From: an uncultured Gammaproteobacteria bacterium
Lineage (GTDB): Bacteria > Pseudomonadota > Gammaproteobacteria > UBA9214
NCBI GenBank assembly: GCA_963827755.1
Contig: CAWHCQ010000026.1
Coordinates: forward strand, 1-28,795
DNA length: 28,795 bases
Direction: 5' to 3'
Both the position numbers and the translations under genes were made by a program. This document shows, one piece after another, positions 1,505 to 10,145 of the stretch. The notes under the pieces were generated by a model. That model made no database searches, was not told the DNA's origin, and saw only the letters and a list, made by a program, of their open reading frames with translations. The number at the start of each line of letters is the position of its first letter. Position 1 is the stretch's first letter.

Positions 1505-1903
1505 ATGAAACAACCCGGCCCTATCACTCCAAGACTGATCCGCTTCCGGGACGCGCCCTTCTATCTGGGCATGGACCGAAACCGCTTTAACGCCGAGGTA
1601 CGGCCGTATCTCGTTGAAATTCGCATCGGACAACAAGGTATTGCCTTTGATCGCCTTGATCTGGATGCCTGGGTAGACCACTATAAGTCCCGCAACGGGC
1701 GTTCCGGTCAACTCAGAGGAGAATTGACATGGGACGCAAAAGAACAGCCGGACTCTGCGAGCGCAACGGAGTCTGGCACATCGACAAACAGATCAGAGGC
1801 ATCCGCATTTGCGAAAGCACTGGAGAAAGCAGCCTCGCAAAGGCGGAAGAATACCTCGCCAAGAAAACGGAGGAAGTCAGGCAAGCGGTCGTCTACGGTG
1901 TAA
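1505..1903 (+). CDS. Excisionase-like (Xis/RDF) DNA-binding protein
   Basis: PRLIRFRDAPFYLGMDRNRFNAEVRP...FDRLDLDAWVD looks like a winged-helix Xis. It lies directly upstream of, and overlaps, the integrase. Start at ATG 1505 is uncertain. Confidence 0.7.
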   Translation: MKQPGPITPRLIRFRDAPFYLGMDRNRFNAEVRPYLVEIRIGQQGIAFDRLDLDAWVDHYKSRNGRSGQLRGELTWDAKEQPDSASATESGTSTNRSEASAFAKALEKAASQRRKNTSPRKRRKSGKRSSTV

Positions 1904-2832
1904 GGCCGAAACGCGCATTTCGGCGGGCCGCAACCCGGTACCTGAATGAGAACCAGCAGAAACGCCGCATCGCCGATACTGCGTTGCATCTGAAACAACT
2001 GGACCCCTGGATCGGCCACCTGCCGATCGAATCGGTCCACATCGGGACATTGCAGCCCTTTATCGAGGCACGGCGCAAGCAGGGGATCAAGACCAAGAGC
2101 ATCAACCTCGCCCTGGGCGTGGTACGGCACATTCTTAATCTCGCGGCATCGGAATGGCTGGATAAGAACAACCTCACCTGGTTGCACTCTCCACCCAAGA
2201 TCAAGTTGCTGCCGGTGACAGACGCACGCAAGCCCTGGCCCTTATCCTGGGAAGAGCAGGCGCGGCTGTTTAAGGAACTGCCGCCACATCTGGCGCGGAT
2301 GGCGCTGTTCAAGGTCAATACGGGTACGCGGCAAAAGGAAGTGTGTTACCTGCGTTGGGAATGGGAAGTACCCGTTCCCGAGCTGGGGACCAGCGTCTTC
2401 ATCATCCCGGAGGATCGGGTTAAAAACGGTGAAGAACGATTGCTGGTACTCAACCGGGTTGCAATGTCAGTCATCGAGGACGTCCGGGGTGAACATCCTG
2501 AATTTGTGTTCACCTGGCGCGGCCATCCGATCACGGTCATGAACAACTCGGGCTGGCGAAGCGCACGCAAGCGGGCTGATCTTTCGCAGGTACGTGTCCA
2601 CGACCTCAAGCACACATTCGGTCGTCGTTTACGGGCAGCCGGGGTGAGTTACGAGGACAGGCAGGACTTGCTGGGACACAAGTCGGGCAGGATCACCACA
2701 CACTACTCGGCGGCCGAACTGGAGAACCTGATTGAGGCGGCCAACCGGGTGTGCGGGGAAAACTCCCGCAAAAGTCCCGCACTGGTGTTGTTGAAGCAAA
2801 AGGCGGCTACCGCTGAAACGGTATCCGCTTGA
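1729..2832 (+). CDS. int: Tyrosine recombinase / phage-type integrase
   Basis: Motifs NTGTR, KNG, HDLKHTF, LLGH and THY. AGGAG RBS upstream. Adjacent to a tRNA 3' end. Confidence 0.95.
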   Translation: MGRKRTAGLCERNGVWHIDKQIRGIRICESTGESSLAKAEEYLAKKTEEVRQAVVYGVRPKRAFRRAATRYLNENQQKRRIADTALHLKQLDPWIGHLPIESVHIGTLQPFIEARRKQGIKTKSINLALGVVRHILNLAASEWLDKNNLTWLHSPPKIKLLPVTDARKPWPLSWEEQARLFKELPPHLARMALFKVNTGTRQKEVCYLRWEWEVPVPELGTSVFIIPEDRVKNGEERLLVLNRVAMSVIEDVRGEHPEFVFTWRGHPITVMNNSGWRSARKRADLSQVRVHDLKHTFGRRLRAAGVSYEDRQDLLGHKSGRITTHYSAAELENLIEAANRVCGENSRKSPALVLLKQKAATAETVSA

Positions 2833-2847: not shown

Positions 2848-2924
2848 TGGCGCGCCCGGAAAGATTCGAACTTCCGACCGCCTGGTTCGTAGCCAGGTAC
2901 TCTATCCAGCTGAGCTACGGGCGC
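2848..2924 (-). tRNA. tRNA-Arg (anticodon ACG)
   Basis: Reverse complement GCGCCCGTAGCTCAGCTGGATAGAGTACCTGGCTACGAACCAGGCGGTCGGAAGTTCGAATCTTTCCGGGCGCGCCA: 77 nt, full cloverleaf, encoded CCA. Confidence 0.98.
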
Positions 2925-3111: not shown

Positions 3112-4200
3112 CTATTTGCCTGAACCGGCAATCCAGTCAAGACCAAGCGGATTATGCGGGTCCACCCCCTCCATGTAGGGCAGGTTCCGCTGTTCGTGGG
3201 TCAACTGGTAGACCAGCCCGATCCAGTTGCCGACGATAGCTTCGGCTGTGTCGTGCCAGGTGTTGTCGAGGTGTTCGGCAACCAGCTGCTCCGGGAATTC
3301 GGGAGCCGGGTCACCCGCTGACCGCGCCGCGGCCAGGCGCGTGTGATACTCGTCGAGGATGGCCTGTTCGCGCGGCTTGAAGTGGTGTTCCGGAAACGCT
3401 GGATAATTGCTGCGTTCGCCGCCGGCAAAACGCTGCACTTCGCGCTTGTACTCCTTGAGCAGGGACACGGTGTCATACTCCGGGTGTCCCTGGAAATAGA
3501 CGACGCGGAAACCATCCGGACTGACGGCGAGGTGCACGCCTGCCTCCCCACTCTCGACCAGCACGTGCAGGCCGGCCTCCCGGAACTGTCCGGCACTGAT
3601 GTTGTTGAAGCGCGAATGCGGCACGTCGAACTGCGTATTGACGTCGTTGACCAGCGGGTGGTCTGTGCGAATCACCCGGTGCGGGTACACGCCCCAGCGT
3701 TTGGCTGGCAGCGCGGTGCGCTTCTGGCCGTGCTGGAACTGCATCGCCGCGTGAGTGGCGAGGCAGGAACACAGCACAGAGGTCACGTTCTGCTGTGCCC
3801 AGTCGAGCACCGCGCGCAACGGTTCCCAGAAGGTCTCCTGTGACAGGTCGGGATGGGAAACATTGGCCCCGGTAATGATCAGCGCATCCAGCCCTTCGCT
3901 GCAGATCTGCTCGAACGAGTCGTAGTAACGCTCGATGTGCGCTCTCGCCTGTTTTCCGCGCGGCAACTCGGCGAGCGTGAACGGGTGCATGTAGAACTGG
4001 GCGATGGGATTGCTCTCCCCGACGAGGCGAAAAAACTGGCGCTCGGTCGCGGCCAGTGCCGCATCCGGCATCATGTTCAGCACACCGATGTGCAACTCGC
4101 GAATGGTCTGCTGCCGGGCCCGACCCGGTTTCAGGATAGTCTGGCCTTCCAGGCGCAGGCGCTGGAAGGTCGGCAGATCGTTGTGGGCGACAATCGGCAT
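3112..4200 (-). CDS. metA: Homoserine O-acyltransferase, MetA family (probably succinyltransferase)
   Basis: Motifs LNMMP, TERQF, DALIITGA, catalytic C in CSCLA, PHSR and GHPEYD. The specificity position after TGA is Ser, not the acetyl-type Glu. Confidence 0.92.
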   Translation of the reverse strand: MPIVAHNDLPTFQRLRLEGQTILKPGRARQQTIRELHIGVLNMMPDAALAATERQFFRLVGESNPIAQFYMHPFTLAELPRGKQARAHIERYYDSFEQICSEGLDALIITGANVSHPDLSQETFWEPLRAVLDWAQQNVTSVLCSCLATHAAMQFQHGQKRTALPAKRWGVYPHRVIRTDHPLVNDVNTQFDVPHSRFNNISAGQFREAGLHVLVESGEAGVHLAVSPDGFRVVYFQGHPEYDTVSLLKEYKREVQRFAGGERSNYPAFPEHHFKPREQAILDEYHTRLAAARSAGDPAPEFPEQLVAEHLDNTWHDTAEAIVGNWIGLVYQLTHEQRNLPYMEGVDPHNPLGLDWIAGSGK

Positions 4201-4205
4201 GCCTG

Positions 4206-5069
4206 CTATCCCCGCGGTTCGTCCGCCTTGCGGGCGATGGCGTTTTCCAGCAGGTCGTGGAAGTCCTGCTCGTCGCGTACTGCCGCGACTTCGTGCGAGG
4301 TCACTGTATAGCCGTAAGGACCGGCAATGGCCTCGTAACGCGGCACGCGCGAATGGAACAGTCGCGGGAACACCCAGCTGCAGAAATCATCCGGGTCAAC
4401 CTGTGCCGCGTATTCAAGTCCACGCAGTTCGAGGTACTGCTGCAGGTGTTCGGCGAGAAACTCGGGGCGGTAATACAGCGGCTTGGGACTGCTCTGGGCG
4501 CGGCTGATCAGGGCCTCCTCCTCGGCCTTCTCGGTGACCCGGATGTACAGGATCAGCGAGTGCTTCACCAACAGGTCGATCACGGACGGCTCGTCGAGTT
4601 CACACAGGCTGCCGCCGACATCGTTGACGAAATTGTCGTAACCGTAAATCTCGTGTGCCTTGCGAATAAACAAGGGCACATCCCGCATGGCCGCGATCTC
4701 CGCCTCGCGGTAAAGCGCCTGGCGCCGTGAAAACTCTTCCAGCGGAACACCATCGAGTTCAGGATTGCCGAGTTTGCCGACAAAACTCAGCACCGGCCCC
4801 AGGTCATGCACCTTGATGTTGTTGCGAATATTGATCCAGTCACGACGCAGCAGCTCGCGCAGGAACGGTGTCTGCATCGCCTGCTGCTTGATCAGGTCCA
4901 TGATCGGCTCGTCCAGGTAGCGGGTACCGATACGGTAGTCACCCGAGTAGTGGAACCAGTTGTGCTTGCGCAGCAGCATCGACAGGTGGGTCTTGCCCAC
5001 CCCCGACATCCCCAGCAGGGTAACGCTCTTGTTCTTCCAGGTATGAAACCCGTCAACGGTGAACTGCAT
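4206..5069 (-). CDS. Uncharacterised P-loop NTPase/kinase, co-operonic with metA
   Basis: Walker A GMSGVGKT near the N-terminus and a hhhD motif (FVND). The stop is 5 bp from the metA start. GGAG RBS. Confidence 0.85.
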   Translation of the reverse strand: MQFTVDGFHTWKNKSVTLLGMSGVGKTHLSMLLRKHNWFHYSGDYRIGTRYLDEPIMDLIKQQAMQTPFLRELLRRDWINIRNNIKVHDLGPVLSFVGKLGNPELDGVPLEEFSRRQALYREAEIAAMRDVPLFIRKAHEIYGYDNFVNDVGGSLCELDEPSVIDLLVKHSLILYIRVTEKAEEEALISRAQSSPKPLYYRPEFLAEHLQQYLELRGLEYAAQVDPDDFCSWVFPRLFHSRVPRYEAIAGPYGYTVTSHEVAAVRDEQDFHDLLENAIARKADEPRG

Positions 5070-5209: not shown

Positions 5210-5548
5210 TGGCGGAGAGAGAGGGATTATTCGGGCCGTTGGCCCTCACCCCTTCGGGGCCGCCGGCATAGCCGGCGTTCTGCGCGACTTCCAGTCGCTT
5301 GTCGAACCGCTTAATTGGTATATCGAGGGCTCAAATCCCGGCTGGCATTGGTGAAAAAAAAGGCCCCTCAAGGGGCCTTTTTTATCTGGCGGAGAGAGAG
5401 GGATTATTCGGGCCGTTGGCCCTCACCCCTTCGGGGCCGCCGGCATAGCCGGCGTTCTGCGCGACTTCCAGTCGCTTGTCGAACCGCTTGATTGGTATAT
5501 CGAGGGCTCAAATCCCGGCTGGCATTGGTGAAAAAAAAAGGCCCCTCA
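5210..5548 (-). repeat. Two tandem 177-bp tRNA-Ser-linked repeat units (RtT-like)
   Basis: Units start at 5210 and 5387 and are nearly identical (one substitution, A-run 8 vs 9). Each carries the 19 3'-terminal nt of tRNA-Ser including CCA, four GC hairpins and a terminator hairpin (broken in unit 2). Confidence 0.9.
5354..5383. terminator. Bidirectional intrinsic terminator within repeat unit 1
   Basis: A8-ggcccc-tcaa-ggggcc-T6. Confidence 0.85.
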
Positions 5549-5658
5549 TGGGGACCTTAATTCCCATACTCCCTTAGCAGGGGAGCGGCTTCAGCCCTCG
5601 GCAGACTGACTCCTACTTGCTTACCCGGGCAGCGCCTGCAGCCGTCGGCCACCTCTCC
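5548..5658 (-). pseudogene. tRNA-Ser(GCT), garbled as assembled: T-arm and 3' acceptor strand missing, D-arm region duplicated imperfectly
   Basis: Anticodon arm CTCCC-CTGCTAA-GGGAG at 5569-5585, variable arm atggg/cccat at 5548-5567, 5' end GGAGAGGTGGCCGA from 5658. Canonical position downstream of csrA. Confidence 0.75.
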
Positions 5659-5815: not shown

Positions 5816-5859
5816 CACACAGGTATGCTACGCCACAAGGGGCGTAGCATACCTGTGTG
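5816..5859. terminator. Perfect 19-bp inverted repeat downstream of csrA (possible terminator)
   Basis: cacacaggtatgctacgcc-acaagg-ggcgtagcatacctgtgtg, with a U-rich tail on the minus strand. Confidence 0.6.
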
Positions 5860-5903: not shown

Positions 5904-6092
5904 TCAATTGGTACCGTCTTTATCGTGCTGCTCATGCTTGATGCGTTCGTATATCTCTTCCCGGTGGACGGCGACATCCCGGGGAGCATTGACACCTATC
6001 CTGACCTGATTACCTTTGACACCCAGCACAGTGACAGTCACTTCATCACCGACCATGAGCGTCTCCCCCACTCTTCTTGTAAGAATCAACAT
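5904..6092 (-). CDS. csrA: Carbon storage regulator CsrA/RsmA
   Basis: [37 protein letters not shown]...VHREEIY. Confidence 0.99.
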
Positions 6093-6293: not shown

Positions 6294-7523
6294 CTAGACT
6301 TTTTCAGGCTGCGCCAAATTAAAGACATCATGCAGGGTACGAACACCCAGTTCCAGGTACTTTTCATCCACCACGACGGATATCTTGATCTCGGACGTTG
6401 AAATCATGCGGATGTTCACACCTTCCCTGGCAAGGGCGGCAAACATGGTCGAGGCAATACCGGCGTGCGAGCGCATGCCGACACCTACCAGTGAAATCTT
6501 GACGATCTTGTCATCGCCGATGACCTCGCGTGCATGCAGTTCATCCGCCGTGCGCGAGAGTATTTCCAGGGCGCGGCTGTAATCATTGCGGTGAACGGTA
6601 AAGGTGAAGTCAGTCGTGCCGCCGTCAGGCGCGATGTTCTGGATGATCATGTCCACTTCTATATTGGCATCGGCAATCGGCCCAAGTAACTGGTAGGCAA
6701 TACCCGGTTTGTCAGGCACGCCGAGAACGGTTAATTTTGCCTCATCGCGATTGAAAGCAATGCCGGATATCAGCGCCTGTTCCATCTCTTCATCCTCATA
6801 GGTAATCAGCGTACCTTCACCCTCTTCAAACGAAGAAAGGACCCGTAGCGGTACATTGTAACGACCGGCAAAACTCACCGAGCGGATCTGCAATACTTTC
6901 GAGCCAAGACTTGCCATCTCGAGCATCTCTTCAAAGGTAATCCGCGCGAGCCGACGAGCCTCAGGCACGACGCGCGGGTCCGTGGTATAGACGCCATCGA
7001 CGTCCGTATAGATCTGGCATTCGTCCGCCTTCAGTGCCGCGGCCAGCGCCACTGCCGTGGTATCCGATCCGCCCCGGCCCAGCGTGGTGATATTGCCATC
7101 TTCATCGACACCCTGGAAACCGGCCACGACCACCACCCGTCCGGCCGCAAGGTCGGTATGCAAGCGCTTGTCATCAATTTCCCGAATGCGCGCCTTGTTG
7201 TGGGCATTATCGGTAAGAATCTGCACCTGGCTGCCGGTGTAGGAACGCGCCGCACAGCCGCGTTTTTCCAACGCCATGCAGAGCAGTGCGATGGTCACCT
7301 GCTCGCCGGTGGACAACAATACATCAAGTTCACGCGGAACCGGTTTGTCTGTGACTTCATCGGCCAGTGCCAGCAGGCGGTTGGTTTCACCGCTCATTGC
7401 CGAGACCACCACGACGACGTCATTGCCTTTTGCACGCCAGTCAACGACCTTGTCGGCCACGTGACCGATGTGCTCGGCCGAACCGACCGAGGTGCCGCCG
7501 TATTTTTGTACGATAAGTGCCAT
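6294..7523 (-). CDS. lysC: Aspartate kinase
   Basis: Motifs VQKYGGTSV, TTLGRGGSDTTA and DVDGVYTTDPR. C-terminal ACT domains. alaS-lysC-csrA synteny. Confidence 0.97.
   Translation of the reverse strand: MALIVQKYGGTSVGSAEHIGHVADKVVDWRAKGNDVVVVVSAMSGETNRLLALADEVTDKPVPRELDVLLSTGEQVTIALLCMALEKRGCAARSYTGSQVQILTDNAHNKARIREIDDKRLHTDLAAGRVVVVAGFQGVDEDGNITTLGRGGSDTTAVALAAALKADECQIYTDVDGVYTTDPRVVPEARRLARITFEEMLEMASLGSKVLQIRSVSFAGRYNVPLRVLSSFEEGEGTLITYEDEEMEQALISGIAFNRDEAKLTVLGVPDKPGIAYQLLGPIADANIEVDMIIQNIAPDGGTTDFTFTVHRNDYSRALEILSRTADELHAREVIGDDKIVKISLVGVGMRSHAGIASTMFAALAREGVNIRMISTSEIKISVVVDEKYLELGVRTLHDVFNLAQPEKV

Positions 7524-7547: not shown

Positions 7548-10145
<2,598 letters not shown>

Follow-up and report, generated by a model that had tools for sequence, protein, structure and literature searches.

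RtT RNA is known from the tyrT-tyrV locus of E. coli, in which tandem 178-bp repeats are situated behind a tRNA gene and consist of an antisense copy of the T-arm, the motif GGTTCGA, a multi-hairpin insert and a tail of AATCC, acceptor 3' strand and CCA. In the annotation of this region, rttR, a 171-nt small RNA (sRNA) that starts 8 nt after tyrV and ends at the CCA of the tail, is the only RNA feature over the copies, and two further repeats are covered by the hypothetical coding sequence ychS. To our knowledge, RtT has been without an accepted function since its first description. In the literature searched, to which the original tyrT papers do not belong, no paper describing the family beyond rttR and tyrT was found. 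A preprint describes rtT RNA as involved in the processing of the tyrT transcript and likely in the stringent response, and in a further publication rttR is listed in a table as holding a repetitive extragenic palindrome, REP (PMC12306157). Here, two tandem units of the same layout are described, located at 5210-5558 on contig CAWHCQ010000026.1 of an uncultured gammaproteobacterium. The whole stretch of 28,795 nt is referred to as the window and all coordinates are given with respect to it; the units are read on the minus strand, i.e., from high to low positions.

Judged from their sequence, both units belong, as diverged members, to the family of E. coli rttR (Rfam RtT, RF00391), which is known but poorly understood, and do not represent a new type of system. 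Over its full length (model positions 1-130 of 130), the RtT model can be aligned to the upstream unit (5387-5535, 31.2 bits, E = 5.6e-4) as well as to the downstream unit (5210-5358, 30.9 bits, E = 6.6e-4). A comparison with this model had been proposed in an earlier reading made from the sequence only; the scores of 31 bits fall below the gathering cut-off of 45 bits. The homology is reciprocal: a covariance model (R1), derived from an alignment of 26 inserts of the window genome and its genus, scores 92.6 bits with each window unit (5224-5308 and 5401-5485), and this model, which contains modules of this genus only, matches four tyrT-tyrV repeats of E. coli with 52-55.9 bits (E = 3.6e-15 to 8.1e-14). 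The assertion that the units share the scaffold of the tyrT repeats is therefore well founded. As to the choice of the search method, an nhmmer profile missed the units of contig C43 of the same genome at E 1e-3, which were found by R1, and a census of the genome with a loose regular expression gave mostly false positives in coding regions and was replaced by nhmmer and the covariance model. A second Rfam family, AaHKsRNA22 (RF02902), aligns to both inserts (5216-5303 and 5393-5480) with 37.7 bits at a cut-off of 39.8. This alignment is confined to the four-hairpin insert, with three of its hairpins in register; AaHKsRNA22, compared here by its Rfam name only, is catalogued as the stand-alone sRNA 22 of Aggregatibacter without a stated link to RtT or to tRNA ends.

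Tandem Repeats Finder (TRF) reports a single array at 5210-5558 with a period of 177, 2.0 copies and 97% matches. The downstream unit (5386-5210, 177 nt), delimited by sequence, TRF, Rfam, R1 and fold, starts with a G+C-rich terminator hairpin at approximately 5377-5362, seen in the RNAfold structure, and a T-run at 5361-5354, followed by the antisense T-arm (5339-5321), a linker (5320-5309), GGTTCGA (5308-5302), a 73-nt module (5301-5229) and a 19-nt tail ending with CCA (5228-5210). In case of the upstream unit (5558-5387; sequence, TRF, terminator scan, Rfam RtT and R1), the terminator scan places a likewise G+C-rich hairpin at 5558-5538, which is followed by a T-run, and the antisense T-arm (5516-5498), GGTTCGA (5485-5479), the module (5478-5406) and the CCA-ended tail (5405-5387) follow. 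The sequence-only reading had given this layout with exact coordinates for the downstream unit, from which those of the upstream unit result by a shift of 177. In both units the module is situated at one fixed point, between GGTTCGA and AATCC of the T-loop remnant, and in the downstream unit it is folded into four hairpins by RNAfold, as had also been proposed. Both tails have the same sequence as the 3' end of intact tRNA-Ser(GCU) genes in the relatives L023 and L026. Of 18 positions in the reverse complement of the T-arm, 16 are matched by the antisense segment 5339-5321, and the two mismatches are compatible with G.U pairs. For 5386-5210, RNAfold predicts the terminator hairpin, an outer helix between antisense segment and tail, a second helix between antisense segment and GGTTCGA, and the four hairpins of the insert. 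The fold energy is -75.5 kcal/mol compared to -59.1 +/- 4.2 for 200 shuffles (z = -3.95), none of which is as good. The pairing of antisense segment and tail is predicted by the Rfam alignment alike. Open reading frames within the units encode 22-58 aa and none is conspicuous as a peptide gene.

Compared to the E. coli repeats, the window units are likewise tandem and situated behind a tRNA gene, but the host is tRNA-Ser(GCU) and its gene is broken. Further differences are the antisense loop, which is of the type ATTTGAG in contrast to ATGAGAA in E. coli, the presence of an intrinsic terminator in each unit, and a longer linker with a conserved ATCAAT-like motif.

The four-hairpin insert is a separable, conserved module. 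Covariation was evaluated for 106 matches (98 distinct) from 63 sources, the tyrT-tyrV repeats of E. coli included. The four module helices contain 89.5% standard pairs, and changes on both sides were observed in 15 of 18 pairs. Double-change cells amount to 297, compared to 86.5 +/- 7.6 in shuffles, none of 500 reaching the observed number, and to 16-78 with slid partners; the alignment of helices 2-4 was fitted to the model and the sequences are related, so that the shuffle controls overstate the significance. Helix 1, which lies outside the structure of R1, still displays double changes in four out of four pairs. Among the helix cells that deviate from Watson-Crick pairing, G.U (86) is by far more frequent than A.C (23). 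Together with the same bias in the antisense pairing described below, this excess points to selection on an RNA of the tRNA strand and is not expected for hairpins selected in DNA. Taken jointly, membership in the RtT family and the interpretation of the units as RNA structure are held with high confidence.

The tail of 61 out of 106 modules corresponds to the 3' end of a tRNA encoded on the same strand in the locus. Hosts of 15 anticodon types are represented, which fall to Arg, Gln, Ser, Lys, Tyr, Glu, Pro, and Val. The window genome harbors 11 R1 matches at 8 loci, ten of which are located beside tRNA genes or carry a tRNA-type tail, and the eleventh is weak (E = 0.086). Hosts in this genome are tRNA-Ser(UGA), tRNA-Ser(GGA) with three tandem units, tRNA-Gln(CUG), tRNA-Gln(UUG), and tRNA-Glu(UUC), supplemented by one tRNA-Arg-type tail. 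About 1.3 kb beyond the three-unit array of contig C43, separated from it by coding sequence, two degenerate repeats with a tRNA-Ser(GGA) tail and without module occur (G000 contig C43:8250-8450, minus strand). In many genomes of the genus and of other families, a tRNA-Ser-like copy is situated between csrA and the intact tRNA-Ser(GCU). These copies carry the module in the D-loop, often in the T-loop too, and lack the acceptor 3' strand; D-loop modules are found in L023 (360-640), L025, L026, L027, L019, and L024, and also in L038, L040, L048, and L056. Copies of tRNA-Arg(CCG) with a module in the T-loop precede the intact gene in two genomes.

That the antisense segment matches the host tRNA had been suggested beforehand. 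For 43 units (one per locus and host), the 80 nt upstream were compared to the reverse-complemented final 45 nt of all hosts. In 26 of the 43 units, the own host scores higher than each host for a different amino acid, with a mean score of 12.8 compared to 8.1 for the others. In the 33 units with a score of at least 11, mismatches of the antisense segment are G.U in 22 and A.C in 3 cases. The antisense segment thus tracks the host tRNA as RNA pairing would demand. A recurrent change from ATTCGAA to ATGAGAA places tandem G.A/A.G opposite the sense GA.

The linkage to different hosts is also evident in E. coli K-12 (NC_000913.3), where R1 detects 19 places, all with E <= 1.1e-4. According to their coordinates, four are situated in tyrT-tyrV, one at proK, five in the lysT-valT cluster, three in the serV-arg cluster, three in tandem behind serX, one behind lysV, and three just after 5S genes. 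Reading of the sequences confirmed 15 of the 19 places; one in lysT-valT, one in serV-arg and two 5S sites are assigned by coordinates only. Module regions are 4171832-4171915, 1097037-1097482, 780638-781794, 2817665-2818433, 3708462-3708538, and 2521396-2521470. With the Rfam RtT model, the cut-off of 45 bits is exceeded at proK (101 bits), in the lysine/valine cluster (46.7-60), at lysV (47.3) and at serX (46.3), with scores of 46.3, 46.3, and 36.1 bits for the three serX units. Re-addressing to other tRNAs, serine included, is consequently already implicit in Rfam RtT. The serine-type tail and antisense segment of the window units do agree with the sequence-only claim of a scaffold directed to a different tRNA, but such a change of host is not new.

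A copy in rrnB (36.5 bits with R1, E = 1.6e-8) is located between the terminators T1 and T2 and splits a short copy of the 3' end of 5S rRNA, in the order GAGTAGGA / module / AACTGCCAGGCAT. It resembles the window units by the same module and the flanking terminators, and differs from them by the 5S rRNA as host and by the absence of a clear antisense segment; Rfam RtT does not detect it to E 0.001. The T1-T2 stretch of rrnB is carried on many cloning vectors. No annotation was found over the module copies in the rrnB, serX, and serV-arg regions of K-12.

Beyond E. coli, a draw of one genome per family from the class yielded the module (E <= 0.01) in 67 of 151 genomes, or 65 of 149 without the two unpublished genomes G063 and G165, with 1 to 16 matches per genome. 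In a draw at the level of the phylum, matches with E <= 0.001 were obtained for 46 of 151 genomes, among them members of another class. In some genomes of this class, near-identical dispersed copies occur in both orientations without a tRNA nearby (29 matches in G187, of which the six loci L082-L087 were read). The dispersed modules of this class are flanked by other hairpins (L082-L087 of G187, L088-L091 of G201, and L098 of G236).

Such dispersed copies and the patchy distribution within the class would fit a selfish element acting at the level of DNA, similar to miniature non-autonomous transposons or REP sequences, which inserts at a fixed site of the DNA encoding T-loops, D-loops and the 5S end, whose RNA has no role, and whose scars are kept by linkage to essential genes. 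The fixed insertion point would fit as well: the start of the module is exactly GGTTCGA in 61 of 106 cases and GGCTGAC, which corresponds to the D-loop of the tRNA-Ser-like copies, in 10 of 106. Moreover, in a tree of 56 host-assigned modules (95 columns, weakly resolved), well-supported branches force at least four, seven, and three host changes for Arg, Gln, and Ser, respectively, and the Lys- and Arg-linked modules of E. coli form one clade with 100/97 support. The window units were left out of this tree due to the lack of an intact host. The same tree, however, shows clustering by host above chance (23 changes compared to 33.9 in shuffles, 0 of 200 as low), and the strand-specific predominance of G.U over A.C (86:23 for the module, 22:3 for the antisense pairing) is not expected of hairpins in double-stranded DNA. 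Neither a target duplication nor a terminal repeat nor a transposase accompanies the units, all 19 places in K-12 are situated in tRNA clusters or just after 5S genes, and the loci within one genome are diverged, the window unit and those of contig C43 being 74-75% alike, which shows that a recent burst did not take place here. In the window genome, neither the combination of terminal inverted repeats and target duplication nor many near-identical dispersed copies, either of which would characterize a mini-transposon or REP, were found. Altogether, we regard a selfish element as unlikely. The related proposal of a non-autonomous, tRNA-targeted element is in agreement with the host switching and the dispersed copies of the other class, but the recombinase or reverse transcriptase that was to be looked for does not occur with the units; the only integrase gene of the window abuts tRNA-Arg, 2.4 kb away. 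The overall picture is one of long residence of the module at a host, from which it is occasionally copied to new ones.

The window itself deviates from this pattern with respect to the host gene. The only tRNA predicted by ARAGORN and by the Rfam tRNA model is tRNA-Arg(ACG) (2848-2924, minus strand), and no intact tRNA-Ser was found in the window. Upstream of the units, two damaged pieces remain on the minus strand. Fragment A (5658-5627) comprises a good acceptor 5' strand and D-arm followed by divergence, and occupies the place of the tRNA-Ser-like copy with the module in the D-loop of relatives (compared to L023, L025, L026, L027, and L038). Copy B (5613-5543), identified by alignment to the intact tRNA-Ser(GCU) of a relative, retains the D-arm region, an intact anticodon arm with the loop CUGCUAA, the variable arm and the 5' strand of the T-stem. 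Its 5' acceptor strand is corrupted, and the terminator of the first unit replaces the T-loop, the 3' strand of the T-stem and the acceptor 3' strand. The units are arranged in tandem, but the tRNA-Ser(GCU) upstream is broken, and in the window the array appears to have outlived its own tRNA gene. The linkage to tRNA-Ser noticed before is subject to the restriction that the linked gene is broken. Copy B is the sole GCU anticodon arm in the assembly, a draft of 52 contigs with 91.8% completeness and 5.4% contamination. AGY codons require tRNA-Ser(GCU); hence an intact copy is missing from the assembly, or else the bin is chimeric at 5543-5658. Due to the completeness of 91.8%, an intact tRNA-Ser(GCU) may be located in the unassembled 8%, approximately, of the genome.

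The draft state and contamination of this metagenome bin also raise the question whether the tandem copy is an artefact of assembly, a possibility named at the outset. In four runs examined, contigs cover neither 5515-5555 nor 5597-5637 and thus not the point where the broken tRNA-Ser meets the first unit; contig joints and loose ends, seen at 5563 and 5596-5645, resemble intact tRNA-Ser(GCU) genes that belong to other organisms of these samples. The junction between the two units, in contrast, is spanned by contigs from two public runs, each of a different study (X1 record 5, 5288-5430, and X3 record 20, 5270-5430), one of which may be the sample of origin, and the two copies differ from each other at several positions. 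Due to both facts a plain assembly duplication is unlikely. Considering also arrays of the same design elsewhere, i.e., the three units on contig C43 and the three units behind serX in the finished genome of E. coli K-12, there is next to no chance that the tandem is artificial.

The locus has been rearranged, as follows from the broken tRNA-Ser and from its separation from tRNA-Arg by 2.3 kb of genes, whereas in relatives csrA, the intact tRNA-Ser(GCU) and tRNA-Arg(ACG) are located close together. This rearrangement, the exact copies of the tRNA 3' end in the tails and the phage-integrase family gene beside tRNA-Arg (1729-2832, plus strand; Pfam E = 2.1e-16) could be taken to mean that the units are inert by-products, either decayed tandem duplicates of the 3' part of the tRNA or att leftovers of an integrative element. 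The tRNA 3' end is the region used by many integrases, and att repeats resemble the units as direct repeats of the tRNA 3' end downstream of the gene. They differ from them in several respects. No island and no coding sequence is located between the tails of the units, the period is 177 bp, and the structured module interrupts the T-loop, in which crossover usually takes place, so that the sense copy is not an intact att site. The earlier suggestion of decoy att sites has little to commend it. The integrase gene abuts tRNA-Arg and not the units, and a repeat of the tRNA-Arg end was not found within the window. In addition, decay products would not show compensatory conservation across 67 of 151 sampled families. 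An origin of the units as inert remnants is therefore considered very unlikely, and a conserved RNA of the RtT type is preferred.

For this RNA, the following chain of events is proposed, which we hold to be probable, with reservation, as a whole: an RtT-family RNA would be processed by tRNA enzymes, be stable and carry a partner-binding module. Each unit would encode a structured RNA on the tRNA strand with the last 19 nt of the host tRNA and CCA at its end, closed by a helix of the upstream antisense segment with the sense halves of the T-arm and the tail. Transcription presumably occurs by read-through from the tRNA promoter. As the unit begins after one CCA and ends at the next, just as the annotated 171-nt RttR of E. 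coli does, excision by the enzymes that mature tRNA ends appears likely, the product spanning from one CCA to the next. RNAs released from a tRNA precursor by tRNA-processing enzymes and with a role of their own are known from the 3'ETS-leuZ type, which pairs with sRNAs. The units have no likeness to 3'ETS-leuZ in sequence or structure, and a comparable base pairing with sRNAs was not seen for them. Instead of fulfilling a tRNA-like role, the product would most likely persist as a stable RNA, with a protein or a different cellular partner bound by the module. Arrays may grow and shrink by unequal crossing-over between the repeated tails, and over long times the module may have been copied into new stable-RNA contexts.

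Several observations speak against this chain or limit it. Besides the scores of both units below the RtT cut-off and the kinship of the aligned modules, no RNA record exists among the 19 sequencing runs listed for the window DNA, a sequence scan found no promoter-like site inside the two units, and an intrinsic terminator opens each of them, so that read-through may be rare. A hairpin with T-run within 80 nt upstream was observed for 20 of 60 host-assigned units. The closing helix is not universal, since 10 of the 43 units have no clear antisense segment (score < 11) and 17 of 43 do not score highest with their own host, including E. coli units of the lysine and arginine clusters that are devoid of an antisense segment. 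One portion of the antisense segment, which is complementary to the T-stem 5' strand and to the last part of the variable arm, finds no partner within the unit and might be explained by gene conversion between the inverted copies or by pairing in trans. Finally, the molecular function is a guess, the best one being a processed, stable, protein-binding RNA, and the mode of action of rttR is given as unknown in the preprint.

The unpaired part of the antisense segment would also fit a different mode of action, in which the RNA acts in trans on the cognate tRNA, its precursor or its 3' fragments, sensing or sequestering them by an antisense segment of up to 28 nt with complementarity to T-arm, acceptor strand and CCA of the tRNA. 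Some antisense segments indeed run from TGG, the complement of CCA, through the T-arm, with 28 nt in L034 and 25 nt in L036 and L051. Mature T-arms, however, are tightly folded and modified, and the antisense segment of the window comprises only 18-19 nt and can be satisfied in cis. The recurrent change from ATTCGAA to ATGAGAA lowers the complementarity to the tRNA, and 10 of the 43 units are without a clear antisense segment. Action in trans on tRNA, which includes the tRNA-pairing RNA suggested earlier, is thus highly improbable, and we favor a closing function of the antisense segment within a processed, stable RNA.

With respect to the partner of the module, it is tempting to speculate on a specific version of this idea, although we consider it a long shot. 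The module might be a portable RNA domain which copies itself into a fixed point of T-loops, D-loops or 5S ends, gains a closing helix matched to the host and acts as a multi-copy protein sponge, with CsrA as candidate partner. The module RNA would then be released in step with the transcription of tRNA and rRNA. Among distinct modules, GGA is present in the loop of hairpin 1 in 36 of 90 and of hairpin 4 in 33 of 95, compared to shuffled means of 15.4 and 17.8, respectively; as the rows are kin, these counts are a lead and not a finding. Both loops contain GGA in 27 of 98 modules, and hairpins 2 and 3 are depleted of it. One subtype of the module has loops of the CAGGAUG kind, which we take to resemble CsrA binding sites. 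The window units contain GGA in hairpin 1 only, and their locus is situated directly behind csrA. A link between CsrA and rttR is absent from the titles and abstracts of the literature naming both.

The gene order on the minus strand is alaS (7548-10145), aspartate kinase (6294-7523), csrA (5904-6092; Pfam CsrA, E = 1.7e-25), the tRNA-Ser region with the two units, an open reading frame without Pfam match (4206-5069), homoserine O-succinyltransferase (3112-4200), and tRNA-Arg(ACG). The csrA gene is the conserved upstream neighbor of the tRNA-Ser(GCU) locus. Just downstream of it, a near-perfect hairpin of 19 pairs occurs on the minus strand (5816-5859), and a similar sequence is present at the same place in L018, L021, and L023; its match to Rfam mir-5881 is attributed to chance. 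The open reading frame directly downstream of the units (287 aa) contains a P-loop-like GMSGVGKT near its start and has no Pfam match at E <= 0.001. Only 16 bases lie between the end of the integrase gene and the 3' end of tRNA-Arg, an arrangement like that at the border of an integrated island.

Taken alone, the window provides a modest gain, namely one more diverged member of the RtT family and the oddity of a broken host gene. Considering all loci, the family is neither a curiosity of E. coli nor bound to tRNA-Tyr. If the module should act as a sponge of CsrA, the output of stable-RNA operons would be tied to global post-transcriptional control, which might explain the link between RtT and the stringent response reported long ago. 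Since the module is located in trailers and leaders of the most strongly transcribed operons, its function would bear on the biology of tRNA and rRNA operons in many bacteria.

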